NCBI GenBank assembly: GCA_036796475.1
Contig: DAIRCW010000001.1
Location: 2,127 to 66,126, forward strand
From: Candidatus Acidiferrales bacterium
GTDB taxonomy: Bacteria; Acidobacteriota; Terriglobia; Acidiferrales; UBA7541
Reading direction: 5' to 3'
Length of the DNA: 64,000 nt
A model generated the notes under the pieces. That model did no database searches, was not told the origin of the DNA, and saw only the letters and a program-made list of their open reading frames with translations. Each line of letters opens with the position of its first letter. Position 1 is the stretch's first letter. The position numbers and the translations under genes are program-made. Positions 3,810 to 40,764 of the stretch are shown here, in pieces.

Positions 3810-4688
3810 TTATTGCCCCTTGAGGAAGGACGCGAGAGTAAGCCACAGCAGCACGAATCCGGCGACGATGACAGCCGTGCCAATGGCACGCGCCAATATT
3901 TTCAGCCTTGATGATGGCGCGGTTGCTTGCACGGCAGGCAATTGACCTCTCTCCAGCAGACGTTGATATTCAAGAGGGTGTTTTTCCTTTAGTTCTTTTT
4001 CGGTCTGGCGGCCCGTGAAGATGACCAGGTCCATGGGAAAACTTCCCGGACGCAAGTGAGTATTAAAGAAATGGATGGCGAAAATGAACCAGACGGCGAG
4101 GAGGGCTTCTTCTCCGTGGATCAAGAGTGCAATGTTGAGCCATGAGCCAGGGATGATCCTTGCGACGAATGGCGCAAACCACATGGCGTATCCGGATATG
4201 CCGATTATGGCCATGCCCCAGAAAACCGCCCAGTAATCGAATTTCTCCCAATAGGCAAAACGATCAAATTTGGGCCGCGGGCCGAGCTATAAGAACCAAC
4301 GAACATGGCGGTAGAGATCCTGAAAATCTTTTGGATTGGGTACCATGGAATTCGGACCCCAGAAGAGCCCTTTCTGCTTCTTGAGAAATGTACTGCGGGC
4401 GATATCGCCGAGATGAATCAGAAAGGCCACACTCAGAACTACGGCGCAGAATTTGTGGAAGAACAGAATCGCGCTGAATCCGCCGACTGCATGAGCGAAT
4501 CCCGCAGCCCAGCGGGCATGGCTGAAGCGAAGAACCATTCCAGTCAAAGCCAGCCCAAGAAAAGTCGCCATGATGGTGGCGTGCAGATAGCGCTGGCCCG
4601 AGGAGAAGCGCCGGTAGTATTGAGCAGCTGAACCGGCCGAGCTTATTCCAGACTGGTTCAAATCTTCGCTAATCGCCGCTTTGGACAT
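3810..4688 (-). pseudogene. FdnI/HydC-type (formate dehydrogenase gamma-like) cytochrome b, interrupted by one in-frame TAG at 4287-4289
   Basis: ORFs 4287..4766 and 3810..4214 are in the same frame. Translation across the stop reads ...[40 protein letters not shown]..., so conserved-looking TM sequence continues through the stop. The likely start is ATG 4688, with GAGGAAAGG 7 nt upstream. Confidence 0.7.
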
Positions 4689-5904
4689 GCGCGCCTTTCC
4701 TCGAGTGCTCAAATGCAGAGCGGATAAACCACAAAATTGTGTGCAGGCCGAAAAATCCCAGAACAACGAGCAGCAGCAGATTCATAAACCGAGCAGCAAA
4801 ATAAAGCGCAGGAAAGGATTTCCGGTCGCGCGGACTGGCGTGAGGATGGTAGGTGACAAAGCTCGCGCTCGCGCCGTTGTGGCATTGACCGCAAGTCGCC
4901 GTCAGATTGGAGGCTGCTACCGAGGAGTGCGGATCCGAAGCGGGAAGGATGGTGTGTTCGCGATGGCAATTCCAACAATGGGCGGTGGCGGCGTACCCAA
5001 GCGCTGAGACTTGCGCGTGAAAGGTGTCCTGATAGGTGGCAAACCGCGCCTGATGGCAGCTTCCGCAAGTTGCGGTTGTCTTCTCCTGCCACTCACCGGA
5101 CTGCACGTTAGAGATCTGGTGTGCGGTGTGGCAATCACTGCAAACCGGCGCTCCGGCATTTCCGGCCTTCAACGTCAGTCCATGAATTCCCGCGAAATAA
5201 GCGGCTTTGGGCCCTGCGTGGCAGGAGCCGCAGGTGTCCGGAATGTTGGCTCGATAGGTCCGGCTCTGCGGATTGGTGCGGCTCAGGATTTTGTGAGTGC
5301 CGTGGCAACTGGAGCAGGAAGCTGCCACGAGCAAGCCGTCTTTGGACAAGGCGAAACCGTGGATTGAATCCATGTACATCGAGTACACGTTGGGAAAACC
5401 GAACTTCTTGGCCATTTCGGGATTGCCATGGCAGGAGCCACAGGTTTTGGGGATGTTCAGCGCGAAAACGGGCGAAGCGGCGTCTTTTACCGGGACAATC
5501 GAGTGCGGATCGCCATGGCAGCCCAAACAAGGAATCGCGCTGGCTTTGGCATGAACGCTTGTGGACACATCCGCAGACTCATCGGCGTGGCACGTCGCGC
5601 AATTGACCGCCGCAGGATGATCCGGATGAGGATAGCCTTTGATGTCGGCATGGCAATCTGTACAACTCAAACTGCCGTGGACGCTCTTGGCCTGTTTCTG
5701 GCCATCCACGAAGACGCTGTGCCCTGCTTGATTTTTCAAATCCTGCTGCCCGTGACAGGCAAGGCAGTCGTCATTCTTCTGCGCCAGGGCAGGTGTGGCA
5801 GCGAGGAACACTGCCGCCGCGATGAACAGGCAATACGCGGGAGTGCCAGCTAGCAGGGCGCGAAAGAATCGAGAAGGAGGCCGAAGCTGGGGGCGAAAGT
5901 TCAT
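4669..5904 (-). CDS. undecaheme c-type cytochrome with signal peptide and C-terminal TM helix
   Basis: Eleven CXXCH motifs: CLACH, CTDCH, CATCH, CLGCH, CGSCH, CSSCH, CGSCH, CSDCH, CGSCH, CWNCH, CGQCH. N-terminal signal-like segment ending ALAQ. C-terminal helix FMNLLLLVVLGFFGLHTILWFI. ATGA overlap with the upstream gene. Confidence 0.9.
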   Translation of the reverse strand: MNFRPQLRPPSRFFRALLAGTPAYCLFIAAAVFLAATPALAQKNDDCLACHGQQDLKNQAGHSVFVDGQKQAKSVHGSLSCTDCHADIKGYPHPDHPAAVNCATCHADESADVSTSVHAKASAIPCLGCHGDPHSIVPVKDAASPVFALNIPKTCGSCHGNPEMAKKFGFPNVYSMYMDSIHGFALSKDGLLVAASCSSCHGTHKILSRTNPQSRTYRANIPDTCGSCHAGPKAAYFAGIHGLTLKAGNAGAPVCSDCHTAHQISNVQSGEWQEKTTATCGSCHQARFATYQDTFHAQVSALGYAATAHCWNCHREHTILPASDPHSSVAASNLTATCGQCHNGASASFVTYHPHASPRDRKSFPALYFAARFMNLLLLVVLGFFGLHTILWFIRSAFEHSRKGAHVQSGD

Positions 5905-7352
5905 TTAATTCCGAGCTCCGTCAGTACCTTCGGATTGTGTTCATCCACAGCGATGAGGTCATGGCAGGCATCGCAATCGTTGGGAATGGTCTTCCCGTCC
6001 GCAGAGGTGTGGCTGCCATCGTGGCAACGGAAGCATCCCGGCCAATCGGTGTGACCGATATTATTGGGATAAGTGCCCCAAGTGACGTTCATCGAGGGGA
6101 ATACATTGCGCAGGTAAATTCCCTGAATGGCGGTGATGGCCTGGTCGAGCTTTGATTTCTGAGAAGCCACAACCTGCGGATAATTCTTCTCGTAAAAATC
6201 TCGAAGAGCGGTTGCGATTTCTGTTCTGGCGCTCTCGCGATCTGAATAGGTTTTCTTTAGGACTTCCAGTGCTTCCTTCTTGATGAACGGAAGATCCGCG
6301 CTGATAAACGATTCGGAAATCGCTTGGTCCAAGGCAGACTCCGGCATTTGGAATGTATGAGTCGGGCGGTTATGGCAATCCATGCAATCCATGACGCGAT
6401 GCTCGCCCTTCGCGAGTTGGTCAGGCGTAGGTTTCGTGTCCGTGGAGGTGAATACGGTCGCCTTGCCTGAGGGATCGGTATAGGTGACCTGCCCAATCAT
6501 CTGGCGCTTTGCATCTGTGGCGATGTAGGTGATTCGCACACCGGGATCGAGGTGGTATCCATGAATGCCGACGCTGCCGGTGGCGCTTGTTCCGCCAACC
6601 TTCATGAGCAATACGGTGGTTGAGGATGTATTGGCGGCATCGTCTTTGTAATGGTTGCGAACCAGGAGGACGTTACCTAAGAATCTCTGAGGCCAGTGGC
6701 ACTGTTCGCAAGTGGCGCGCGCGGGGCGCAACTGCTCGACCGGTGAGGGTATGGGGCGCGGATAATCATGGAAGGCAACGGCAAAGACCTGGCGGGTGCC
6801 TGAGACTTTGGAACGCACGAACCAGGATGCTCCCGGTCCGATGTGACATTCGACACAAGCAACACGGGAATGCGGCGAATGCTGGTAGGCCGTGAATTCC
6901 GGCTGCATCACGGTGTGACACGTCTGGCCGCAGAATTGGACGGAATCCATGTACTGTGTGCCTTTGTAAGCAGCGGTGGTGAAGATAACGATATTCAGGA
7001 AAGTGGCCATGGTGACGAGGACGGCGGTTCTTCGGAGGAACGGGTCGGCGAAGTCAACGCGCGGATATTCGGACGGAAGTTCGCCACGGCGGCGCAGGTG
7101 GCTTCGCCGGAGGAGAGCGCCGATGGGCATCAAGATGAGTCCCAGGATGAAAACCGAAGGCAGAGCGAGCAGAAAAATGATGCCTGAATAGGGGTAGGTG
7201 CTGACTCCGCCGCCGAGGAGAATCTCGAAAATCCAATAGAGGATCATGGTGACGGCGGCAGTGGTGGTGAGCACGACGCCGATTAACGAGATGGTGTTTC
7301 GGCCAAGATAGGCGAGAGGACGGAACCAGGCAGCCAGCCGTTCAGAGGGCAT
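5901..7352 (-). CDS. membrane-anchored multiheme c-type cytochrome with NapC/NirT-like region (ImcH-like)
   Basis: Three N-terminal TM helices. NapC/NirT-like block FCGQTCHTVMQPEFTAYQHSPHSRVACVECHIG. Five canonical CXXCH motifs (CVECH, CEQCH, CMDCH, CFRCH, CDACH) plus one CX3CH (CGQTCH). Confidence 0.85.
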   Translation of the reverse strand: MPSERLAAWFRPLAYLGRNTISLIGVVLTTTAAVTMILYWIFEILLGGGVSTYPYSGIIFLLALPSVFILGLILMPIGALLRRSHLRRRGELPSEYPRVDFADPFLRRTAVLVTMATFLNIVIFTTAAYKGTQYMDSVQFCGQTCHTVMQPEFTAYQHSPHSRVACVECHIGPGASWFVRSKVSGTRQVFAVAFHDYPRPIPSPVEQLRPARATCEQCHWPQRFLGNVLLVRNHYKDDAANTSSTTVLLMKVGGTSATGSVGIHGYHLDPGVRITYIATDAKRQMIGQVTYTDPSGKATVFTSTDTKPTPDQLAKGEHRVMDCMDCHNRPTHTFQMPESALDQAISESFISADLPFIKKEALEVLKKTYSDRESARTEIATALRDFYEKNYPQVVASQKSKLDQAITAIQGIYLRNVFPSMNVTWGTYPNNIGHTDWPGCFRCHDGSHTSADGKTIPNDCDACHDLIAVDEHNPKVLTELGIK

Positions 7353-28290: not shown

Positions 28291-29319
28291 TCAGGGCTGG
28301 ACGTCGTAAACGCGCAATTCCTCCGGACGGCCGCTCCGGCCCCAGATGCCGAGGAACAATCTTCCAAGTTCCGGCGCCAGCAGCGAAGTTCTCCCTCCGT
28401 CAGCCGTTTTGAATTCCGCGACGCGGCGATAATGATCGCCATCCTCTTGCGCGACGATCGTGATGAAGCCTTGCCCGCCCGACACATAAATGCGTTTGTT
28501 GACGCCGTCATACCAGACGTCATCCGCATGCTCGACGCTGGGAACTTTCGCGACGATTTTTCCTGAATTTGTGTCGAGCGCCAGCAATTCCGCCGGTGTG
28601 CGGCACACGATGAACAGTCTGTGGTTTGCTTCATCGAGCGCCATTGGAAAATTATCCTCGGCGCCGCCCAGCTTCCAGGTCCCAATGATTTTTCGCGCGC
28701 TGCGGTCAACTACTTCGATGACATTATTCGCCTCAGGAATATTCACGTAAATCCTCGCGCCCTTCTGCTCGAGTTGAAATCCCTCAGGATGCGCCGGCAG
28801 CGGAATTGTTCCGGCTACATTCCCCGTCGCGGCATCAAAGATCGCAAGTCCCGCGTTTCCTTTATCGCCGTAGCCAACGTAAACCTGCTGCTTTGCCGCG
28901 TCGAGCCGCGTGTCATCCGCGTCGCTCGCCAGATGAACGGCCTTCAGCAGTTGATAGGACTTCCCATCGAATATTCGCACCATGCCGTCATCGCCATTCG
29001 CCACAAAAATTCGCGAGGTGGCCGGCACATAGGTCACTCCTTGTGGCTCGTGCAATCCGCGAATCCTATGTATGCGCTTGTTCGCCGCAATATCGAAAAC
29101 TTCGACGGTGTTGTTGCCGAGCGCTGACATGAACAGACGCTTTCCCGCGAGGTCCACGTCAAAGTGGTCAATTCGCCCGTGGACGTCCGGCAAAGGTATG
29201 GTTGCCACAAGCCGCAGTGGTGTACGTTCTTTCTCTTGTGCGCGCGCCGTAAAACCGGCCGTCAGCGCGATTGCCGCACAAACCACGAAGGCTACCGCGG
29301 TCACATTTGCGTTCTTCAT
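28291..29319 (-). CDS. secreted YncE/YVTN-type beta-propeller repeat protein
   Basis: Signal peptide after ATG 29319 (GGAG RBS). Repeated ~40-aa units with V..D........I.....P.G motifs. Paralogous in style to the upstream gene. Confidence 0.7.
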   Translation of the reverse strand: MKNANVTAVAFVVCAAIALTAGFTARAQEKERTPLRLVATIPLPDVHGRIDHFDVDLAGKRLFMSALGNNTVEVFDIAANKRIHRIRGLHEPQGVTYVPATSRIFVANGDDGMVRIFDGKSYQLLKAVHLASDADDTRLDAAKQQVYVGYGDKGNAGLAIFDAATGNVAGTIPLPAHPEGFQLEQKGARIYVNIPEANNVIEVVDRSARKIIGTWKLGGAEDNFPMALDEANHRLFIVCRTPAELLALDTNSGKIVAKVPSVEHADDVWYDGVNKRIYVSGGQGFITIVAQEDGDHYRRVAEFKTADGGRTSLLAPELGRLFLGIWGRSGRPEELRVYDVQP

Positions 29320-29344
29320 TGTTTTTACTCCTGGCCTGTACGCC

Positions 29345-30340
29345 TCACGGCTGAATCGGCTCATACACAATCATCCGGCAAACAGGCTGGTCGTCCTCCT
29401 CCGCTTCCGGTGTGAAAACGCGATGCGTTTGAGCGTCAACTTCCAGCGTATGCACGCCCTTCTGCACCGGAAAATCCTCGAGCTTGCGAAAATGATCGGC
29501 ATCCTGTTCTTCGATCACGGTTATCGCGCCGCTCTCGCATGCCACGTAAATCCGCCGCAGGCCTGCGTCGAATTTCACGTCATCGGCGCCCTCCGGCAGC
29601 GGGATGTGGGCAATCGCGCGATGCCTTTCTAAATCGAAAACGGTGAACACGTTGTTGCCCACGCACAGCAAGAACGCGCGCCGGTTCTTCGCGTCGATCG
29701 CCATCGCGTGATTGAAGTCGCATCCCGCCACGTGGTATCGAGCCGCCACCTTGTCCGCCTGTGGATCAATCTCTGCAATTTCATTCGCGTTACGCAAATT
29801 CAGCCAGACTTTTCGGCCTACCTCATCGTACTGCGTCATCCCTGTCTCGCTCTCGAAGCGCAGCGTTTTCGCCGGCTTATCGCTGCGAACGTCAATCGCC
29901 TGCAACTCCTTGCCCAGCGTGTCTGAAATATAGACCTTGCCGAAGTCCTTCGCGTACGTTCCGCCGTTCGGCTTTTCACTTGATGCCAGCCGCTTCACTA
30001 CTTTCATCTGCTTCAGATTCACCACGCCGATTTTGTTCTCGCCCCAGTCGCATGCGTACACTTTTTTGAATCCCGGCACGTACACCGGCACGGTAATTCC
30101 GGGGAGCCCGTGAATAGCCGCGACCACTGCGTTTCGCTGCACGTCAATCACGTACAAAATGCCCGCTCCGGTCTGTGCGGAAAGCAAATAATGATCGTCG
30201 TAATCCATAGCGAGGTGATCGAAGTGCCCTCCCCTGGGCCCGTGCAGGTCAATCGTGGTAATTTTTTTCAGCGTTGCGCCATGCGTGGGAATGGCAAAGC
30301 AAGCAGCCAGAGCGCAGGCGATCTCGGCGAGCGTTCGCAT
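29345..30340 (-). CDS. secreted YncE/YVTN-type beta-propeller repeat protein
   Basis: ATG 30340 lies 2 nt after the rhodanese stop. Signal peptide, then repeated propeller blades (YVIDVQRNAVVAAIHGLPG, VVNLKQMKVVKRL and others). Confidence 0.7.
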   Translation of the reverse strand: MRTLAEIACALAACFAIPTHGATLKKITTIDLHGPRGGHFDHLAMDYDDHYLLSAQTGAGILYVIDVQRNAVVAAIHGLPGITVPVYVPGFKKVYACDWGENKIGVVNLKQMKVVKRLASSEKPNGGTYAKDFGKVYISDTLGKELQAIDVRSDKPAKTLRFESETGMTQYDEVGRKVWLNLRNANEIAEIDPQADKVAARYHVAGCDFNHAMAIDAKNRRAFLLCVGNNVFTVFDLERHRAIAHIPLPEGADDVKFDAGLRRIYVACESGAITVIEEQDADHFRKLEDFPVQKGVHTLEVDAQTHRVFTPEAEEDDQPVCRMIVYEPIQP

Positions 30341-30342
30341 GC

Positions 30343-30834
30343 TCAGCTCTTTTTCCGTTCCACCGGGTATCCCTGCCCAATCCAATCGTGTGCAAAATCC
30401 TGGGGAATCAGCAGCACCATCACGCGCGCGAATCCCATCTGCCGCAGCGCTTCATACGCGGGCTTCACATTGGGACACTTCTCCCACGGACAGCAGCCGC
30501 AGTAGATCACCACTTCTTTGTCGTGCGGAATTTTCGCGGCGGCTTGTTTCAGTTGTGCCAGGCCTGCTGTTGTCGAAGCCGGGCCCGCGAAAATCGCTGC
30601 CGGGATATGTCCGCCGTCATAGAGAATTTCGAAACCAACGTACAGCACCGGCGGGCGCGCGCCCTTGGGCCCGTTGAGCCGCTTTTCCAGTTCCGCAGGG
30701 GAAATTTGCCGCGCGTCTTTCCATTCCGCCGCCAATTTAGCTGGCTGCGAAACCTTCGCTGTTTGCGTCTGGCCCTTTGCCCCCAGCGCAAATGCAAACA
30801 CAAGCAGTGGCAGAAGCCATCGCCGAACTTTCAT
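30343..30834 (-). CDS. periplasmic rhodanese-like domain protein with atypical Cys-rich active-site loop
   Basis: Signal peptide and rhodanese topology (GHIPAA...VVIYCGCCPWEKCPN...GFARVMVL). GGGAGG RBS. Confidence 0.7.
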   Translation of the reverse strand: MKVRRWLLPLLVFAFALGAKGQTQTAKVSQPAKLAAEWKDARQISPAELEKRLNGPKGARPPVLYVGFEILYDGGHIPAAIFAGPASTTAGLAQLKQAAAKIPHDKEVVIYCGCCPWEKCPNVKPAYEALRQMGFARVMVLLIPQDFAHDWIGQGYPVERKKS

Positions 30835-32475: not shown

Positions 32476-33822
32476 ATGTTTGAGAACCTTACCGAAAAAC
32501 TACAGCGCGCATTCAAAAACCTGCGCGGCCAGGGCAAGCTCACTGAAGAGCACCTGGATGCCGGTCTGGTGCAGATACGCGAAGCACTGCTCGACGCGGA
32601 CGTCAACTTGGGAGTTGCGGACGAGATGATTGCGCACGTCCGCGAGAAAGCGCTCGGCTCGGAAGTGCTGCTGCAGCTTTCTCCCGATCAGCAAGTAGTG
32701 AAAATTGTCCGCGACGAACTTGCCGAACTGCTCGGCAAGGAAGTTCGCATGCAGTTCGCGTCGCGACCGCCTTCCGTCTGGATGATCGTGGGACTGCAAG
32801 GTTCGGGCAAAACCACCACTACGGGAAAGCTGGGCAAGTGGCTCGGCGAACATGGACATCGGCCGGTCGTGGTTTCCACCGACGTTTATCGTCCCGCCGC
32901 GCGAGAACAATTGGCGCAGGTTGCCAAGGCGACACACACCCCGAATTGGCCTGGCAAGGAAAACGACAAGCCTCTCGAACTTGTGCGCGGGGCAATGCGC
33001 GAAGCAAAGCTCTCCGCCTACGATGTGGTGTTGGTAGATACGGCAGGCCGGCTGCACATCGACGATGAATTGATGAACGAACTCGGCTTGCTCAAGAAAG
33101 AATTATCGCCGGCAGAAATTCTGTTTGTTGCTGACGCGATGATTGGCCAGGACGCAGTACGCTCGGCCGGTGAATTCCACAAGCGGCTAGGGATTAGCGG
33201 CGTGGTGCTGACCAAGCTAGACGGCGATGCGCGTGGCGGCGCGGCGCTTTCCATCCGGAAAGTCACTGGAGCGCCCGTGAAATTTGCCGGAATCGGAGAA
33301 AAATACGACGCCATCGAACAGTTCCATCCCGACCGCATTATTTCTCGAATTCTGGGCATGGGCGACGTTCTCACGCTGATTGAAAAAGCGGAAAAGACGA
33401 TTGACGAAAAGCAGGCCCGGGAACTGCAGCGCAAGCTGGCGCATGACGAATTTTCGTTGGAAGATTTTCGCGATCAGCTGAAGCAGATTCGCAAGATGGG
33501 CTCCATCGAGCAACTGATGGGAATGCTGCCGAAAATCGGCCCCTTCGCCAAGTTGCCGAAAAACGCGGAGATTGACGAAAGCCGCTTAAGAGTAGCGGAG
33601 GCGGTGATTAATTCAATGACTGCTGCCGAACGCGGTGACCATCATTTGATTGACGGCAAGCGGCGCAAACGCATTGCGCGCGGTAGCGGCACAAGCGTGC
33701 AGGACGTCAACGAAGTCCTGAAGCAATATGTGGAAATGCGGCGCATGATTAAAATGTACGGTAATACAATGCGCGGCAAGATGCGCGGCCTCGGCAAACT
33801 CCGCTCCTCCCTCGGCCAGTAG
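32476..33822 (+). CDS. ffh: signal recognition particle protein Ffh
   Basis: MFENLTEKLQ start, GTPase motifs GLQGSGKTTT / DTAGR / TKLD, and a Met-rich M domain. Confidence 0.97.
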   Translation: MFENLTEKLQRAFKNLRGQGKLTEEHLDAGLVQIREALLDADVNLGVADEMIAHVREKALGSEVLLQLSPDQQVVKIVRDELAELLGKEVRMQFASRPPSVWMIVGLQGSGKTTTTGKLGKWLGEHGHRPVVVSTDVYRPAAREQLAQVAKATHTPNWPGKENDKPLELVRGAMREAKLSAYDVVLVDTAGRLHIDDELMNELGLLKKELSPAEILFVADAMIGQDAVRSAGEFHKRLGISGVVLTKLDGDARGGAALSIRKVTGAPVKFAGIGEKYDAIEQFHPDRIISRILGMGDVLTLIEKAEKTIDEKQARELQRKLAHDEFSLEDFRDQLKQIRKMGSIEQLMGMLPKIGPFAKLPKNAEIDESRLRVAEAVINSMTAAERGDHHLIDGKRRKRIARGSGTSVQDVNEVLKQYVEMRRMIKMYGNTMRGKMRGLGKLRSSLGQ

Positions 33823-33990
33823 CCCGCATTTCAACGAATAGCCGTCACCAACTCCAGTCAAGGCGTTAAGCGATCTTCAAATCAGTTTTTCTTCATTGGT
33901 TTTCTCCTCAAAATCCAGCAGCCGTTAAACTTTAGCGATATTTGACTAAGCGTCGGTCTTCCAGTCTGAATGAAGCTCGCCGACGAGTTC

Positions 33991-34016
33991 GCTTTCGTGA
34001 CTTGCGTCACGAAAGC
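33991..34016. repeat. perfect 11-bp inverted repeat GCTTTCGTGAC-ttgc-GTCACGAAAGC
   Basis: Read directly. It lies ~275 nt upstream of the decaheme cytochrome start and has no T-tract after it. Confidence 0.9.
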
Positions 34017-34291
34017 ATGTGTCCGCGGTCATAACGCTGGTGTTGGTGATGCTGTATCAGAGGAGATGTTCGGGCAGAGAAATGCAGGAAGGCTGGAACG
34101 GGGCAAATGCCAGCGCGATTGGTGCCAAAACGGGATTCCGACACTCGCGTGGGTTCCATTTCGGTCACCGGCGAATGTTTTACGGCTGTGATGCACGTCA
34201 CAGTCTGAATCGTGGCGAACGTGTTATACGGTGTCAAAGATTTCTTTGAACTTGTGCAGGGCACATCTGAACTCTGATGAGAGGTACGTGT

Positions 34292-35224
34292 ATGGGGCGT
34301 GTCAAGATCGTGAGTTCAGCAGTTATTCTAGCTTGTGCGATTGTGGCATCGTCCAGGGCCGCTCTTGCGGGGCCACAGGACGCAAAGGCCAAGACCGATG
34401 CGCAGCAGGCGGCCACGGCGAAGTATGCGGGTTCGGATGCCTGCAAAGCCTGTCACTCGGATGAGTACACCAGCTGGGAAAAATCGCCGCACTGGAAAAC
34501 GACGTTAGACACGCGGCAGGGCTCTTCCCACCAAGGATGCGAGGCATGCCACGGAGCGGCCGCGAATCACGTGGCGGACCCGAGCGACATGTCCGGTCTG
34601 TTCATTTTCACCAAAGCCTCTCCCAAAGAAATCAATGAGCGCTGCCTGGAATGCCACGCTTCCAGCACCGAGCACATGCAGGCCATAAATTCGCTGCACG
34701 CAAAAAATGGCGTGTCCTGCACATCGTGCCACTCGCCCCACCACGCGGTTACAGAACACTTTCTCCTGGCCAAGAAACAGCCGGATTTGTGCTTCTCCTG
34801 TCATTTGAAAGAAAGGTCGCAGTTCGCGATGCCTTTCCACCACCGCGTCAATGAAGGGCTGGTGCAGTGCACGGATTGCCATAACCCCCATGGGACGGAG
34901 CGGCCCCATCAGTTGCGGGCTTCCGCGGCACAGGACGCTGTTTGCTTCAAATGCCACGCCGATAAGCAAGGACCTTTTATGTTTGAGCACGAGCCGGTCA
35001 AGGTGGAAGGCTGCACATCGTGCCACATTCCCCACGGATCGCCGAATCCCCACCTGTTGAAGGTGAGCAACGTGAATCTGCTGTGCTTGCAATGCCATAC
35101 AGCATCGTTCGCAAATGCGCCTGGCGCGCCGTCCTTCCACAACCAATCGACGCAATTCCAGGCGTGCACCATCTGTCATACGCAAATTCACGGCTCGAAC
35201 ATCGACAAGTTTTTCTTCAGATAG
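34292..35224 (+). CDS. periplasmic decaheme c-type cytochrome, MtrA/DmsE/PioA/MtoA-like
   Basis: Signal peptide and exactly ten CXXCH motifs in ~310 aa. C-terminal CTICHTQIHGSN. ATG 34292 (GAGAGG RBS) is preferred over ATG 34277. Confidence 0.9.
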   Translation: MGRVKIVSSAVILACAIVASSRAALAGPQDAKAKTDAQQAATAKYAGSDACKACHSDEYTSWEKSPHWKTTLDTRQGSSHQGCEACHGAAANHVADPSDMSGLFIFTKASPKEINERCLECHASSTEHMQAINSLHAKNGVSCTSCHSPHHAVTEHFLLAKKQPDLCFSCHLKERSQFAMPFHHRVNEGLVQCTDCHNPHGTERPHQLRASAAQDAVCFKCHADKQGPFMFEHEPVKVEGCTSCHIPHGSPNPHLLKVSNVNLLCLQCHTASFANAPGAPSFHNQSTQFQACTICHTQIHGSNIDKFFFR

Positions 35225-35249
35225 TTTCAGACGATGCGGAGCGACTGAA

Positions 35250-37793
35250 ATGAACGACTCAAGCTCCAGGCGGAACGGCGGGGTGAAGCCCATGAGAACT
35301 CTGGTAAGAAGTTGCATGATTGGCTGGCTTGCTCTGGTGGTAGCGCTGTTCTTTACGACCAGGACGGGCGCCCAGCAATCGAGCGGGCAGAGCAGCGGGA
35401 CCGAGCAAACTTCAAGTGGCATGCAGTCCGGCGACTATAACGTCCACCAAAGCATCGAATTCGGCTATCGCGACAGCATGATTGACGGCAGCATCGATAA
35501 TTACGACACATTCGAGAATCTTGGTTCCGGCGTGCGACTCTTCGACTACACGCTGGACATGCGTTCGCGCGATCACAAAGGATTTTTCTTTGACAATCTG
35601 AGCTTCAGCAACTTCGGATACGGCGGCGATCCCAACGATGTCAGCAGGCTGCAATTTGACAAAAACAAATGGTACGAGTTCCGCGCGCTCTTCCGGCGCG
35701 ACAAGAATTTCTGGAATTACAACCTGCTGGCGAATCCGCTGAATCCGGCGAGTTCCGTTCCCGCTTTGCCGATTGTAGATTCGCCGCATTCGATGGATCT
35801 GGTGCGGAGGATGCAGGATTACGACTTGACGCTCTTGCCGCAATCGCGGCTGCGCTTCCGCCTCGGATATTCGCACAATGTGAACGAAGGCCCGGGATTG
35901 ACGACGCTGGATGGCGGAACGGAGCCTGTACTGGCGGAGAATTTTCGTTACACAACAAACGCGTACCGCATGGGCGCGGATTTCCGTTTTCTGCCAAAGA
36001 CGACCATTTCGTTCGATGAATTGTTGACCTATTTCAAGCAGGACAGCACCGTAACGGATCAGAATTTTCCCTTCGTGCTGTCGGATGGCACGCCCGCGGA
36101 TTTGGGAATCATCTTCAACACGGCCGGAAAAACGCCGTGCACGGCACCGATCCTGGACAGCACGACCAATCCGCCGACGGCCAATGCGAACTGCAATGGC
36201 TACCTCGCCTACAGTCGCGTGGGCCGGCCGCGCTCCTCTTTTCCGACGGAGCGGCTATCGTTTCAATCGAATTACATCAAGAACCTGGAAATGTCGGGCG
36301 GCATCAGCTATAGCAGCGACAAAAATTCCACGCCGGACTTCAATGAGTTTATCAATGGCTGGACGAGCCGCACGGCGAGCAGGGGCGGGACGGTGAGTGG
36401 CCCGTCGCAAGCGAAACGCGTGGCGGTAGACGCTAATTTCGCGGCGGATTACCAGATCAACGATAAGCTGAGCGTAGTGGATGAATTCCGCTATTACAAC
36501 TGGCGCATTCCGTCGATGTGGTTTACCGCGGATACGAATTTCTTCGGAACACCGCCGGCGGTGGCCGGACAAGCAGGTTTGTCGCTGCCGATTGCGCAGG
36601 TAAACGTGTCAAATTTCGCGGCGGTCTGCGGCGCGTCGCCGTATAACGGGCCGAATTGCCCGCAGCACGCGTCTGGCTCTCCGGCGGACGTGCTGGACGA
36701 ATTTGTTTCGCAATTCCTGGGACAGAATCTGCGTTCGAACACGCTGGAATTGGAGTACGCATTTACGCACCGGGTGAGAGCTCGGATCGGCTACGAGTAC
36801 ACGGCGCGCACGATTGCCGACTTCAGCGCGACATTCGATACTGCTGAGGCATATTTCCCAGGAGGTGCAACAGGAACGGCGGCGAATGACTTTCTTGCGG
36901 CGCGCGGCGATTGCGCCATGGTCAGTGGAGTGCTTCCCGCCGGATGCGCACTCGATCCAGCGACCGGAATTATTACGGAAGGAACGCCCACCTCTCCCGT
37001 GCCGGACGCGGCCAACGATACGGCGAGAAACATCACCGACATTCACGAGCATGCGCTGCTGGCGGGAGTATCCGCGAATCCAACAGACAAACTGAGGCTG
37101 AGCGCGGATTTTACATTCGGTTTCAACGACAAGTCGTTTACCCGCATCAGCCCGCGGAACTTGCAGATTTACAACATCCAGGCTACCTATACACCGATAT
37201 CGTGGGCCAGCATCGGCGCGTCACTGAACATTCACGAGAACCGCGATAATGTGCTGACCGTGAACAATCTGGGGCATGACCGGACTTTTGGGTTGGTCAC
37301 CACTTTGGCGCCTAATTCGCGCGTGTGGGGCGACCTCGGATACGATTACACGAACGTCTACACGCAGGCGAACGTTTGTTTTGCTGAGCCAGGGTCGGCG
37401 GTATTCACCACGCCTTGCACCATAGCCGGCGAGGAGCAACCGACACTGGAAGCCCTTTCGTTTTACAAGAGCACGGATCACTTCGTCTATGGGAATTTGA
37501 TGTGGAAGCCAGTGAAGCGGGTTACTGGAATGGTCGGATACGCCGGGAGCATTGTGCGCGGGAGTACGCTCTTCCTTAATCCGCGGGCGCCCACCGGGCC
37601 GCTGGAATTCAACTACATCAAGCCGAGCGTTAGCCTGGCCATTGAGATCTACAAGGACGTGACGTACAAGACAGCGTGGAATTATTACGGGTACAACGAC
37701 AAAGGCGTGGTGAATCCAGCGGGATTGGCGCCGTTGCCGCTGCAGGATTTCAACGGGAATAACGTGACGTTCTCTTTGCGCTATGCGTTTTAG
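35250..37793 (+). CDS. large outer-membrane beta-barrel protein, MtrB/PioB/MtoB-like (decaheme-associated porin)
   Basis: GGAG RBS before ATG 35250, with signal peptide ...ALFFTTRTGAQQ. ~847 aa, no heme motifs, Gly/aromatic-rich alternating pattern, terminal ...FSLRYAF. Directly downstream of the decaheme gene. Confidence 0.75.
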   Translation: MNDSSSRRNGGVKPMRTLVRSCMIGWLALVVALFFTTRTGAQQSSGQSSGTEQTSSGMQSGDYNVHQSIEFGYRDSMIDGSIDNYDTFENLGSGVRLFDYTLDMRSRDHKGFFFDNLSFSNFGYGGDPNDVSRLQFDKNKWYEFRALFRRDKNFWNYNLLANPLNPASSVPALPIVDSPHSMDLVRRMQDYDLTLLPQSRLRFRLGYSHNVNEGPGLTTLDGGTEPVLAENFRYTTNAYRMGADFRFLPKTTISFDELLTYFKQDSTVTDQNFPFVLSDGTPADLGIIFNTAGKTPCTAPILDSTTNPPTANANCNGYLAYSRVGRPRSSFPTERLSFQSNYIKNLEMSGGISYSSDKNSTPDFNEFINGWTSRTASRGGTVSGPSQAKRVAVDANFAADYQINDKLSVVDEFRYYNWRIPSMWFTADTNFFGTPPAVAGQAGLSLPIAQVNVSNFAAVCGASPYNGPNCPQHASGSPADVLDEFVSQFLGQNLRSNTLELEYAFTHRVRARIGYEYTARTIADFSATFDTAEAYFPGGATGTAANDFLAARGDCAMVSGVLPAGCALDPATGIITEGTPTSPVPDAANDTARNITDIHEHALLAGVSANPTDKLRLSADFTFGFNDKSFTRISPRNLQIYNIQATYTPISWASIGASLNIHENRDNVLTVNNLGHDRTFGLVTTLAPNSRVWGDLGYDYTNVYTQANVCFAEPGSAVFTTPCTIAGEEQPTLEALSFYKSTDHFVYGNLMWKPVKRVTGMVGYAGSIVRGSTLFLNPRAPTGPLEFNYIKPSVSLAIEIYKDVTYKTAWNYYGYNDKGVVNPAGLAPLPLQDFNGNNVTFSLRYAF

Positions 37794-37835
37794 CAGGAAT
37801 GTGATGTCGAGTTCAAATCAACGGAGGCAAACCAG

Positions 37836-38174
37836 ATGAATGGCATGATAATTCGAGTTGGGCAGCGGCTGCTTTTCGCCTGCGCGCTCGCGTTTTTTAT
37901 TCATAGTCCGGCCCGAGCGAATGATTCGGCGAGTCTCTTCAAGACCAAATGCGCCATGTGTCATGCCGCAGACGGCAGCGGCGATAGCGTGATGGGGAAA
38001 AAGATGGGCGCGAAAGATTTGCGTTCCGCGGAAATTCAGAAGAAGAGCGACGCGGAACTGAACAAGCTCATCAGTGATGGCGTGCCGCCCAAAATGCCTG
38101 CCTACAAGGGAAAACTGAGCGACGCCGAGATCAAAGGCCTCGTTACCTACATCCGCGAGCTCAAGAGTAAGTAA
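37836..38174 (+). CDS. secreted monoheme class I cytochrome c
   Basis: GGAGG RBS, signal peptide, a single CAMCH, and a distal Met region PPKMPAY...SDAEIKGLVTYI. Confidence 0.85.
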   Translation: MNGMIIRVGQRLLFACALAFFIHSPARANDSASLFKTKCAMCHAADGSGDSVMGKKMGAKDLRSAEIQKKSDAELNKLISDGVPPKMPAYKGKLSDAEIKGLVTYIRELKSK

Positions 38175-38188
38175 ATCCCCAAGACGTG

Positions 38189-38210
38189 GTGCCCCCGGGG
38201 GCTGTTTGAT
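38189..38210 (+). terminator. possible terminator (GC palindrome GCCCCCGGGGGC + TGTTTGA)
   Basis: The palindrome lies at 38192-38203, 18 nt after the cytochrome c stop. The T-tract is weak. Confidence 0.3.
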
Positions 38211-38266
38211 CTAAGAACCTGGGGGCACGCGTGGACCTGCGCGTCCAAATCTACAATTTCTCCTGT

Positions 38267-38295
38267 TGACCTCTTCCAGTGCTTCGACTAATGTA
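38267..38295 (+). promoter_or_regulatory. candidate sigma70-type promoter (TTGACC-17 nt-TAATGT) for the glycosidase gene
   Basis: The hexamers lie at 38267-38272 and 38290-38295. Confidence 0.3.
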
Positions 38296-38349
38296 CACGC
38301 ACTCTTTTAGAGACTGTTCCGGTTTTTACGGTGGGAGTCCCGGCCCCTC

Positions 38350-40764
38350 ATGCAAGGCGTACGTCTGTGTGTAGTTATCTGTTGTGCGGTAGTACTGGCG
38401 CTTTTCCTTCCAGTAAGCTTTCCGCAATCTCCGGCTCCTGCGTTGAGCGTTGACGCGGCGGCGAATAACCATCCGATCGACCCGAATATCTACGGGATTG
38501 CCAGTTTTGGCCTCGACCCGCAGTTCGCCGCGGAGATTCGCGTGCCGAACGTACGCTGGGGCGGAGACACCACAACGCGTTACAACTGGCTGGCAGATTC
38601 GAGCAATTTCGGATTCGACTGGTATTTTCTCGGCGGCAGCGGACAGGCAAATCCCATCCCAGGCTGGTCGGTGGATCAGATGATTTCGATTTATGGCGCA
38701 GCGGGGGCGCGCGCCCTTGTCACAATTCCCATCATTCCGTATGTGAACCGCAGTTCGGCGCTCACCTGCAGTTTTCCCGTATCCGAATACGGGCCTCAGC
38801 AAAAGATTGATCCGGATGGCCCCCTCCCTAATGGGCAAGACTGTGGCAACGGTATCTCTCTATTCGGAACAAGGCTAGTGGACAAAGACGTTTACTCGAA
38901 CCATGTTGATAACGGCGTTCCGCTTGAGCAGGGCTGGCTCGACCATCTCATCGCGACGTTCGGAACAGCAGCCAACGGCGGAGTCTCCTATTATCAGCTC
39001 GATAACGAGCCGTACCTATGGTTCTACACGCATCGTGACGTGATGCCAAATGGCGCGAACTACCCCCAAATTGCCGCGCTCGGAGAAGAATATGCGGCGA
39101 TGATCAAGCAGAGCGATCCTTCTGCGCAGGTGTTTGGTCCCTCGGATTTTTCGGGGCTCGGCTGGATCGGGGATCCACGGCGGCAGAATGGATTGTTTGC
39201 CGGACAATACTATCTGCAGCAGATAGCCGCTTACCAGCAGAGCCACGGCCAGCGCATTCTGGATTATTTCGACGAGCACTATTACGCGACGAGTTTCGAT
39301 GATGCATCGGAGTTGGCGTCCACACGCACGCTGTGGGATCCGGGATACCTTGGCCTCAGCGGTTCGCCGTTCAATGGGCCCATTGAATTGATCCCGCGAT
39401 TTCGTAAATGGATTCAGCAATTTTACCCGGGAACGAAGCTCTCGATTTCGGAATATGGATTCAGCAGAGGGCGGAATTGGCTGGTGGATGGACTCACGGA
39501 AGCGGACGTACTGGGAATTTTTGGCCGCGAAGGCCTAGATTTCGCGAACCTATGGACCATTCCCATGCCTCCTCCGTCCGTGCTGACAGTTTTTCGAATC
39601 TTCCGCGATTACGACGGTCAGGGCGGAGAATTCGGGAACGTCTCCGTGCAATCCAGCAGCAGCGATCAGGGGCGGCTGTCCATTTATGCGGCGCTGCGGT
39701 CGAGCGATCATGCGCTGACGATTTTGGTTATTAATAAGACGACGCAGCTGATTGGCACGGCGTTGTCGCTGGCCAATTTTTCCGGACAATTTGCTTCCGT
39801 GTATTCGTTCAGCGGCGCGGATCTTTCGAATATTGTGCGCGCGAGCGACGTGGGCGTTGTCGCGAATCAGATCGATTACGATTTTCTAGGGTATTCCGCG
39901 ACACTTTTCGTGATTCCTGAAAGCGGACAGATTGCGGCCACGAGCACCACACTCGCCGCGTCTTCGCTGAAACCAAAGGTCGGGCAAACGGTTACATTCA
40001 GCGCGTCAATTGCGCCGTTGAGCGGTGCTGGGACGCCGACGGGAACAATGGAATTCGTGAATGACCAAACGGTATTCGCGACGGTTCCGGTGAGCGCCGG
40101 CGCGGCATCGTTCACTACAGCGGCGCTTTCCAGCGGCCCGCACACGGTCACGGCGATGTACTCGGGAGATGCCAACTACGCCGCGTCTTATTCCGTTCCG
40201 CTTCAGATTACGGTGACACCTGCGAGGGACTACTCTTTGCAGCTAAGCGACACATCGCTTCAGTTAAAAAAAGGAGCGAGCGCGAGCGTCACTGTTACGG
40301 TGACGCCGCATCAAGGATTTTCGGGGTCCGTCGCCTTCGGATGCACGGGACTGCCTGCAGGCGGCGCTTGCAGCTTTGATCCCACCAGCGTGACGCCTAA
40401 CAGCGGGCCCGTGATGTCCACAATGACCATCACGATTGGTGCGGGGACGAGTTCGCTAATTGAGCTAGAACCGAGCACGCGGTTTTTGCGTCCATTGCTC
40501 TGGGTCGTGATTTCCGTCTTGATTTGGCTCTTGCCCGTGGGGGCTAAACGACGCGTGAGCCGAACTTACAGAACGGTCCGAGCTTTTCGCATCGCGGCGC
40601 TTGCAGGCGGCTGCTTTATGCTTTTCGGCTGCGCGTTCGGCGGGGCATCTTCTAGACCTCAGATTTCCACCAGCGGACGCAACATCTATGTTGCCAGTGT
40701 GAACGCCGGCGGCATCAACGTTCCCAGTCATTCACAGGAAATTACGCTGACGATCATGAAGTAG
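38350..40764 (+). CDS. secreted glycoside hydrolase (GH44-like catalytic region) with Ig-like repeats and hydrophobic C-terminal segments
   Basis: Signal peptide. N-terminal IDPNIYGIASF...VRWGGDTTTRYNW...DWYF resembles the GH44 N-terminus. Ig-like repeats are typical of Acidobacteria (DYSLQLSDTSLQLKKGASASVTVTVTP...GFSGSVAFGCTGLPAGGACSF). Confidence 0.55.
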   Translation: MQGVRLCVVICCAVVLALFLPVSFPQSPAPALSVDAAANNHPIDPNIYGIASFGLDPQFAAEIRVPNVRWGGDTTTRYNWLADSSNFGFDWYFLGGSGQANPIPGWSVDQMISIYGAAGARALVTIPIIPYVNRSSALTCSFPVSEYGPQQKIDPDGPLPNGQDCGNGISLFGTRLVDKDVYSNHVDNGVPLEQGWLDHLIATFGTAANGGVSYYQLDNEPYLWFYTHRDVMPNGANYPQIAALGEEYAAMIKQSDPSAQVFGPSDFSGLGWIGDPRRQNGLFAGQYYLQQIAAYQQSHGQRILDYFDEHYYATSFDDASELASTRTLWDPGYLGLSGSPFNGPIELIPRFRKWIQQFYPGTKLSISEYGFSRGRNWLVDGLTEADVLGIFGREGLDFANLWTIPMPPPSVLTVFRIFRDYDGQGGEFGNVSVQSSSSDQGRLSIYAALRSSDHALTILVINKTTQLIGTALSLANFSGQFASVYSFSGADLSNIVRASDVGVVANQIDYDFLGYSATLFVIPESGQIAATSTTLAASSLKPKVGQTVTFSASIAPLSGAGTPTGTMEFVNDQTVFATVPVSAGAASFTTAALSSGPHTVTAMYSGDANYAASYSVPLQITVTPARDYSLQLSDTSLQLKKGASASVTVTVTPHQGFSGSVAFGCTGLPAGGACSFDPTSVTPNSGPVMSTMTITIGAGTSSLIELEPSTRFLRPLLWVVISVLIWLLPVGAKRRVSRTYRTVRAFRIAALAGGCFMLFGCAFGGASSRPQISTSGRNIYVASVNAGGINVPSHSQEITLTIMK

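Follow-up and report, generated by a model that had tools for sequence, protein, structure and literature searches.

Introduction

Conduits that carry electrons across the bacterial outer membrane through a multiheme c-type cytochrome paired with a beta-barrel have been described in several lineages. In the MtrCAB core of Shewanella (6R2Q), a decaheme cytochrome of ~315 amino acids (aa), whose gene lies immediately upstream of that for the barrel, is combined with the 26-strand barrel MtrB and with MtrC. The MtoAB-MtoD-CymA system of Sideroxydans lithotrophicus ES-1 and the PioAB system of Rhodopseudomonas palustris pair a decaheme with a large barrel and have no MtrC, and in Mto a gene for a small monoheme cytochrome follows that of the barrel. 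The Pcc conduits of Geobacter have no sequence relationship with MtrAB; their porins are smaller, the periplasmic cytochrome carries eight hemes and the extracellular cytochrome is a lipoprotein. The subject of this report is a 64,000-nucleotide stretch of DNA (hereafter the window) from the uncultured Candidatus Acidiferrales bacterium (Acidobacteriota; Terriglobia; contig DAIRCW010000001.1, positions 2,127 to 66,126), in which three adjacent genes at positions 34277-38174 quite probably encode an MtrAB-class electron conduit across the outer membrane.

Acidobacteriota are among the most abundant bacteria of soil and peat, and a redox role for them towards iron and humic substances has been inferred mainly from MtrA-like matches (PMC3669403, PMC7980381). 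MtrA-like decahemes were noted in Acidobacteria in 2013, in Solibacter and Terriglobus (PMC3669403), Lipson et al. reported an MtrA-like decaheme in Terriglobus saanensis, and Candidatus Acidoferrum was named partly for its matches to TIGR03507-03509. MtrCAB with recognisable MtrB and MtrC is known in Bryobacterales ('group 5'; Baker et al. 2022, PMC8805035). A 2026 preprint distinguishes four types of porin-cytochrome architecture in Acidobacteriota and Verrucomicrobiota of peat, which were traced from extracellular multiheme cytochromes (Fiorito et al. 2026, bioRxiv 10.64898/2026.05.27.727921). Group 5 and the EET2 cluster of that preprint resemble the present locus in being Mtr-like clusters of Terriglobia, and both have been proposed for extracellular electron transfer in soil and peat. 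Their discovery relied on MtrC or extracellular multiheme cytochromes and, for group 5, on a recognisable MtrB; the cluster in the window has neither, although one of EET1-4 may correspond to it.

Results and discussion

A decaheme-barrel-monoheme gene cluster

The cluster consists of three co-directional, tightly spaced genes, as had been described in an earlier note made from the DNA letters and a list of their reading frames:

34277..35224, + strand: decaheme cytochrome gene; 315 aa, Sec signal peptide, ten CXXCH
35250..37793, + strand: beta-barrel gene; 847 aa, heme-free, 26-strand model, remote MtrB/PioB homologue
37836..38174, + strand: class I monoheme cytochrome c gene; 112 aa, signal peptide, CAMCH, PKMPAY, predicted periplasmic

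The decaheme and barrel genes are separated by 25 nt (67 nt if an alternative barrel start is used) and the barrel and monoheme genes by 42 nt. The alternative start of the barrel, a methionine codon at 35292, gives a better signal peptide and a product of 833 aa. For the decaheme, the public gene call on an identical Logan contig begins 15 nt later, at the methionine codon at 34292, and yields 310 aa. A motif scan recovered exactly ten CXXCH in the decaheme, with the sequences that the note had listed, and zero in the barrel, which ends in ...FSLRYAF; the CAMCH and PKMPAY motifs of the 112-aa monoheme cytochrome are likewise present. Across the whole 64-kb window, CXXCH was found in just five stop-to-stop reading frames of at least 60 aa, so the heme density of the cluster is not a matter of chance. 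None of the other frames containing the motif is adjacent to the cluster, and the claim that no OmcA/MtrC-type gene adjoins it was confirmed.

The decaheme cytochrome

By its sequence, the decaheme is a member of the DmsE/MtrA family. It scored 260.9 bits against TIGR03508 (NCBIfam, DmsE family), for which the cut-off is 192.2 bits, and covered profile positions 1-257 of 258; Photobacterium MtrA, included as a control, scored 322.4 bits. The match to a DmsE-family hidden Markov model (HMM) that had been anticipated for this protein was therefore obtained. Residues 18-308 align with residues 28-324 of the solved MtrA structure (6r2q_A) at E = 3.5e-35, and the protein shares 35% identity with the MtrA encoded in the bona fide mtrCAB cluster of Photobacterium sp. 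DA100. The PDB molecule name attached to chain A of 6r2q is 'Cystathionine beta-synthase', a labelling error since the sequence is that of the decaheme MtrA.

Conservation across 70 orthologues from related loci extends to the heme motifs and to many histidines. A lipoprotein, for which the residues I-L-A-C ending at position 20 of the signal peptide might speak, was considered and rejected: Cys20 is not conserved among these orthologues, and the product is accordingly regarded as a soluble-type periplasmic precursor.

A neighbour-joining tree was constructed from 20 acidobacterial decahemes and five reference decahemes adjoining PF11854 barrels, comprising two from MtrC-less pairs (with barrels of 751-780 aa), one from an MtrCAB-like cluster, Shewanella DmsE (dmsEFAB locus) and Photobacterium MtrA. 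The MtrC-less references were chosen by their PF11854 neighbour, and MtoA and PioA by name are not among them. The 20 acidobacterial decahemes formed a single clade, with support from 100 of 100 bootstraps. Their identity to each of the references is 32-35%, compared with 37-45% among the references themselves. A kinship with cytochromes of DMSO or nitrite reductases, which had been named as the outcome that would undermine the conduit interpretation, was not seen, since the decaheme does not group with DmsE in this tree and no DMSO or nitrite reductase gene lies nearby. On these comparisons the decaheme falls neither with DmsE nor specifically with the MtrC-less decahemes and appears to have diverged together with its barrel.

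The barrel protein

No family in Pfam or NCBIfam matched the barrel protein, full-length or trimmed, even at E <= 10, and ten divergent relatives were also without a family in either library. Searches of all PDB sequences using phmmer and a 32-sequence profile returned noise only. The MtrB of the Photobacterium cluster, used as a control, scored 510.6 bits on PF11854 and 551.1 bits on TIGR03509, so that the missing match cannot be attributed to a problem with the libraries. The earlier note had expected HMM matches for both proteins; this held for the decaheme (TIGR03508) and failed for the barrel, on which PF11854 and TIGR03509 are silent and whose homology is detected solely at the profile-profile level.

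An AlphaFold2 model of the barrel was built on 64 diverse homologues (alignment A3). It has a mean predicted local distance difference test score (pLDDT) of 88.5 and a predicted template modelling score (pTM) of 0.79, and consists of 26 long antiparallel strands beginning at residue 44. Just a signal peptide and a low-complexity linker lie N-terminal to strand 1, so the barrel is without a plug domain. When the model was compared with the PDB using Foldseek, MtrB (6r2q_B) was the top match (E = 4.1e-15, TM-score 0.70 normalised to MtrB), and the next were 22-strand TonB-dependent receptors with TM-scores of 0.44 or below (E ~1e-11 to 1e-7). A first model, built on 32 close homologues, had a pLDDT of 62.6 and gave an unchanged Foldseek ranking. 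A small or plugged porin, which would have spoken against a conduit, was therefore not what emerged; the protein models as an unplugged barrel whose closest solved structure is MtrB.

Alignment A3 was then compared, profile to profile, with alignment A2, made from 31 MtrB/PioB proteins that are 20-65% identical. This comparison (hhalign) gave a probability of 98.25% (E = 2.7e-14), the match extending over 535 columns, almost the full length, with 11% identity; it supersedes a run of a low-diversity alignment (A1) against a single MtrB, for which the probability was 2.4%. On account of the MtrB-like fold of the model and the significant profile-profile match, the barrel is a genuine, if very remote, homologue of MtrB/PioB that lies beyond current family models. 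It is ~180 aa longer than MtrB, with the extra length in long loops, and is 9-12% identical to it in structural alignments. It further differs from MtrB in being unseen by PF11854 and TIGR03509, in having no N-terminal CxxC and in carrying four conserved pairs of loop cysteines. The MtrB/PioB HMMs detect MtoB and PioB but miss this barrel.

The eight cysteines had been described as forming the pairs C-17-C, C-9-C, C-10-C and C-12-C, and this proved correct: they are located at 283/301, 446/456, 541/552 and 696/709 (833-aa numbering), with one more cysteine in the signal peptide. Seven of the eight are invariant and the other at least 90% conserved among 32 homologues; in the 64 diverse sequences, conservation of at least 90% is kept by four, two of them invariant. 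Every pair falls in an odd-to-even strand loop of the AlphaFold2 model, that is, on the extracellular side, and the four are predicted to be disulfide-type pairs in extracellular loops of the barrel.

One homologue of the barrel (P0096) bears a precomputed Pfam match to PF27998.1 that was not reproduced by the local Pfam scan.

The monoheme cytochrome

The product of the third gene matches PF13442 and PF00034 (class I cytochrome c). Its CXXCH and Met-Pro motifs are conserved in 61 orthologues, the latter probably contributing the axial methionine ligand. Its best PDB match is to the C-terminal domain of CcoP (E = 1.3e-13), with Kuenenia c552 and cytochromes c6 also among the closest; MtoD is missing from the 60 top-ranked PDB matches (E up to 0.02). 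The likeness to MtoD that had been proposed for this component consequently holds for its class and position, a class I monoheme cytochrome where MtoD would stand, and does not extend to detectable homology. Judged from its sequence, the protein is a functional or positional analogue of MtoD rather than a detectable relative.

Gene order in related loci and candidate inner-membrane partners

Gene neighbourhoods were compared in 79 species-representative loci, 78 of which are covered by an analysis of non-overlapping open reading frames. A decaheme gene lies immediately upstream of the barrel gene in 69 of the 79 loci by a simple rule and in 74 of the 78 by the reading-frame analysis, with decaheme-linked barrels ranging down to about 50% identity. 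A monoheme gene lies immediately downstream of the barrel gene in 60 of 79, and the order decaheme-barrel-monoheme is conserved across relatives. No additional large cytochrome was found upstream of the conduit in relatives.

The next gene in 48 of 79 loci encodes a NapC/NirT-type tetraheme cytochrome (~205 aa, membrane-anchored, three CXXCH and one CX4CH). In 27 loci this is followed by a protein of ~65-76 aa with two transmembrane segments and no Pfam match (e.g. L034:5581-5811, L001:11577-11774), possibly a subunit of the inner-membrane module that has yet to be characterised. An ImcH-type pentaheme of 482-484 aa and an 11- or 13-heme cytochrome are located downstream in nine loci, the 13-heme protein (707-772 aa) replacing the 11-heme one in some of those of the ImcH type. 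A third downstream module, present in seven loci (e.g. L017, L036, L048, L052, L054, L071, L073), comprises a ~420-aa 9-heme cytochrome and then a second monoheme.

In the window, no cytochrome gene follows the monoheme; a GH44 glycosidase gene is next, and the NapC/NirT tetraheme is absent. An ImcH-type gene and its companion are found elsewhere:

5901..7352, - strand: ImcH-type candidate quinol dehydrogenase; 483 aa, three transmembrane segments, one CX3CH, five CX2CH
4669..5904, - strand: 11-heme c-type cytochrome; N-terminal signal peptide, C-terminal transmembrane anchor, eleven CXXCH

The two genes overlap by 4 nt, and their products are 71% and 68% identical, respectively, to the pair that follows the barrel in one relative (L010). 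Orthologues of the ImcH-type gene adjoin the conduit in 9-11 loci. Members of the ImcH family are described as having three N-terminal transmembrane segments, an atypical CX3CH by the transmembrane domain, five to nine CX2CH and a NapC/NirT-like region (PMC6295460). The protein encoded at 5901-7352 has transmembrane segments at ~19-51, 52-82 and 109-129, a CGQTCH at 141, twelve residues past the third of them, five CX2CH, and NrfH- and NapC/NirT-region matches. It corresponds to ImcH of Geobacter sulfurreducens in its three N-terminal segments, the CX3CH past the third helix and the NapC/NirT-like region, which is a match of descriptors only, and it has five CX2CH where that protein has six. 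Classed by the published descriptors, it is a candidate ImcH-type inner-membrane quinol dehydrogenase and likely to be the inner-membrane partner of the conduit in this genome, in an unlinked position. Since the pair is 27 kb away and on the opposite strand, its link to the conduit rests on synteny in other genomes. A survey published in 2018 found no mtrAB or mtoAB adjoining imcH (PMC6295460), and the loci compared here provide the first observed gene linkage of an MtrAB-type conduit with imcH, which was presumably overlooked earlier because the barrel had not been recognised.

The 11-heme protein has a transmembrane segment at 363-398. It was considered as an MtrC and rejected on the grounds of a cleavable signal peptide combined with a C-terminal transmembrane anchor, with no lipobox. 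It is instead a candidate for a relay that is tethered to the inner membrane and spans the periplasm.

A gene for a Crp/Fnr-family regulator is located just upstream of the decaheme gene in 20 of 78 loci and tandem universal-stress protein (Usp) genes in 14 of 78 (positions -2 to -6 relative to the barrel, L002-L081), which hints at low-oxygen regulation; neither the Crp/Fnr nor the tandem Usp genes gave a tblastn match in the window. The recurrent neighbours in the 78 loci are confined to cytochromes, the small transmembrane protein, Crp/Fnr, Usp and PmbA/TldD-like genes.

One PF11854-type locus among the comparisons (L086:1569-9132) contains genes for a small cytochrome c, an unannotated 732-aa protein at the MtrC position, a decaheme and a barrel. 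The barrel gene there is followed by those for a monoheme cytochrome c and a COX1-family oxidase subunit, so that a recognised conduit is linked directly to an oxidase.

Comparison with described conduits

With the MtrCAB core of Shewanella, the cluster shares a decaheme of the same family with ten hemes and a similar length, the position of its gene immediately upstream of that of the barrel, and a 26-strand barrel of the same fold with detectable remote homology. It differs in the absence of MtrC/OmcA and in its lineage, which is Acidobacteriota (Terriglobia). The MtrC-less combination of a decaheme with a large barrel is shared with Mto and Pio, and with Mto also the small monoheme gene after the barrel and, in the majority of relatives as counted above, the NapC/NirT-type tetraheme after that. 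In contrast to Mto, the monoheme is not detectably related to MtoD and an ImcH-type module is found in place of CymA; the decaheme clade stands apart from the MtrC-less reference decahemes, a set without named MtoA or PioA. The Geobacter Pcc and Ext systems are alike in combining a periplasmic multiheme cytochrome with an outer-membrane barrel and in having ImcH as the upstream quinol dehydrogenase, whereas the decaheme of the window is, unlike the cytochrome of Pcc, a true member of the MtrA family. The system is thus a sequence-divergent form of the MtrAB/MtoAB porin-cytochrome conduit, and the interpretation given in the earlier note was essentially right.

Proposed path and direction of electron flow

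The analysis shows to which family the decaheme belongs, that the barrel models with an MtrB-like fold and is remotely homologous to MtrB, and that linkage of the gene modules is conserved; from this we infer complex formation, location in the outer membrane, the partners and the direction of transfer. After export to the periplasm, the decaheme would thread through the lumen of the 26 strands, and its ten hemes would form an insulated chain that crosses the outer membrane. Its outermost heme, rimmed by the four disulfide-stapled loops, would meet the external redox partner directly, because no surface cytochrome of the MtrC/OmcA type is encoded. On the periplasmic side, the monoheme would bridge the conduit and the inner membrane, and the anchored 11-heme cytochrome may share in periplasmic transfer in this genome. 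The role of quinol/quinone oxidoreductase would fall here to the ImcH-type protein, and in most relatives to a tetraheme of the NapC/NirT type. By analogy with Mtr, the wire is probably reversible.

As to its primary direction, export is given about an even chance. In acidic soil that turns anoxic periodically, it would serve the respiration of high-potential acceptors in soluble or colloidal form, candidates being organically complexed Fe(III), Mn(III/IV) and humic quinones. The lean towards export derives from the role of ImcH, the Crp/Fnr and Usp neighbours, and field correlations with anaerobic markers. ImcH has so far been implicated solely in quinol oxidation (PMC6295460), and acidobacterial MtrA-type genes are tied to anaerobic and Fe(III)-reduction markers in metagenomic surveys (PMC7980381). 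In peat metatranscriptomes, acidobacterial porin-cytochrome clusters that are not demonstrably of this family are expressed at anoxic depth (bioRxiv 10.64898/2026.05.27.727921).

The same components could serve uptake of the Mto/Pio type, in which electrons from extracellular Fe(II), reduced minerals or humics would pass through the decaheme to a high-potential monoheme and on to a terminal oxidase, with some perhaps passed into the quinone pool by a NapC/NirT-type protein. This is a possibility of real though somewhat smaller weight than export. Many Terriglobia are aerobes, MtrC/OmcA is absent both from the window and from beside the cluster in relatives, and the monoheme keeps its Met-Pro ligand motif and has solved relatives that are oxidase-associated or high-potential class I cytochromes. 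The commonest gene order (48 of 79 loci) is moreover the gene set of the Sideroxydans mtoABD-cymA operon (PMC10654088). Set against these points, the linked inner-membrane module found in the window is of the ImcH type, a family known from reducers only; the decaheme is no nearer to the MtrC-less, PF11854-partnered decahemes (34-35%) than to MtrA and DmsE (32-35%) and forms its own clade; and the monoheme has no detectable relation to MtoD. The Crp/Fnr and Usp neighbours suggest induction at low oxygen, with which microaerobic Fe(II) oxidation would also be compatible. Hence the resemblance of the component set to Mto, to which the earlier note had drawn attention, stands, while the preference for Fe(II) oxidation over reduction that might be read from it does not, because the linked inner-membrane module in this genome is of the ImcH type.

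It is improbable that the decaheme and barrel feed a non-cytochrome extracellular enzyme, such as a surface reductase, in the manner of DmsEF. The family is named after DmsE, the same pair architecture serves DmsAB in Shewanella (reference locus L087), and without MtrC the outer partner is undefined. Yet the decaheme does not group with DmsE, the gene adjacent to the cluster in the window encodes the GH44 glycosidase, which was not found recurrently in related loci, rather than a molybdopterin or other reductase, and clustering of the neighbours in 78 loci yielded only the cytochromes, small transmembrane protein, Crp/Fnr, Usp and PmbA/TldD-like genes listed above. More improbable still is that the barrel is just a large porin or transporter of an ordinary kind, such as a substrate channel, and that its adjacency to cytochrome genes is without mechanistic meaning. 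The missing family match and the many TonB-dependent receptors returned by Foldseek (E ~1e-11 to 1e-7) would fit such a protein, but the barrel has no plug and 26 strands instead of 22, MtrB is an outlying best match (TM-score 0.70 against 0.44 or below), the profile-profile homology with MtrB/PioB is significant, and a decaheme gene lies directly upstream in 74 of 78 loci with barrels down to ~50% identity.

Several observations weigh against a conduit, or against one that exports electrons. The barrel fails both curated MtrB/PioB models (PF11854, TIGR03509), and its mature form is without the N-terminal CxxC that the MtrB-family consensus of alignment A2 shows. The placement of the cytochrome inside the barrel, and of either protein in the outer membrane, is a matter of inference. 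The cluster in the window holds no inner-membrane component, the ImcH-type pair being 27 kb off on the other strand. A sigma-70 promoter scan of 33700-38450 found no promoter-like site, and in a scan of the same region for intrinsic terminators, terminator-like sites were no commoner than in shuffled sequences. Absence of MtrC is typical of the oxidising Mto and Pio systems (PMC7005843), and the monoheme resembles oxidase-donating His/Met cytochromes, which suits uptake at least equally well.

A broader proposal, which is speculative, is that the barrels and decahemes of this separate clade form the main outer-membrane conduit of soil and peat Terriglobia and work without a surface cytochrome. 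They would then represent an ancient sister lineage of the proteobacterial MtrAB/MtoAB, in which disulfide-stapled extracellular loops take the place of MtrC in contacting organically complexed Fe(III) or humics at low pH and in which coupling to ImcH-type, NapC-type or 9-heme inner modules is interchangeable.

Distribution of the barrel family and implications for annotation

The barrel family is large. A word-indexed search gave more than 2,400 clusters at 90% identity, and an exhaustive HMM search gave 1,811 representatives at 50% identity at E <= 0.001, of which 417 remain at E <= 1e-30. At least 589 stretches with a confirmed barrel were found in a scan of one genome per GTDB species, almost all of them in metagenome-assembled genomes (MAGs) of Terriglobia. 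Every named match to the barrel is annotated as "hypothetical protein", and among the 240 homologues listed no cultured carrier was found, MAG or "hypothetical" names being present throughout. The closest relatives are all from MAGs carrying the labels Acidobacteriota, Terriglobia, Terriglobales or Candidatus Acidoferrales/Acidiferrales. Five loci (L021, L031, L047, L050, L055) with barrels 52-64% identical to that of the window are labelled Methylomirabilota, Verrucomicrobiia, Baltobacteraceae or Dormiibacterota; they are bins of one catalogue with contigs of 7-36 kb, and could be mis-binned acidobacterial contigs or the result of horizontal transfer.

Within the open-access full-text literature, no account was found that relates this barrel family to MtrB by homology or that mentions its linkage to imcH. 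FeGenie calls MtrB by TIGR03509 (PMC7005843) and would therefore not register the barrel. The partner barrel of the commonest acidobacterial MtrA-like decaheme is a predicted MtrB-type sheath that current models miss, and pipelines that demand an MtrB match would score its carriers as having no conduit. If the family does provide the main conduit of Terriglobia, surveys based on TIGR03509 under-count extracellular electron transfer in an abundant soil phylum. The value of the locus lies in the scale of an unannotated family in a dominant soil phylum, in the blind spot of annotation that it reveals and in its modular inner-membrane partners, which make the question of direction experimentally approachable. 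In practical terms, the alignment can be used for a new HMM, and the genes constitute a defined module of three to five genes for heterologous tests.

Genomic setting

GC content is flat along the window. The ffh gene is directly upstream of the cluster, and other neighbours include lon, clpB, dinB, a gene for a CCA-adding enzyme and those for a 2-oxoacid dehydrogenase complex. A horizontal-transfer island was considered and rejected on these two grounds, and the region is taken to be core chromosome. Two further features flank the cluster:

38350-40764, + strand: GH44 glycoside hydrolase that includes an Ig-like domain and, C-terminally, a hydrophobic segment; directly 3' of the monoheme gene
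28291-30834, - strand: tandem pair of YncE-like proteins, each a seven-bladed beta-propeller; secreted protein with a rhodanese domain

The GH44 glycosidase is probably unrelated to the conduit, because clustering of the neighbours in related loci did not find GH44 recurrently. The YncE-like propellers and the rhodanese-domain protein are encoded ~3.5 kb upstream of the cluster.

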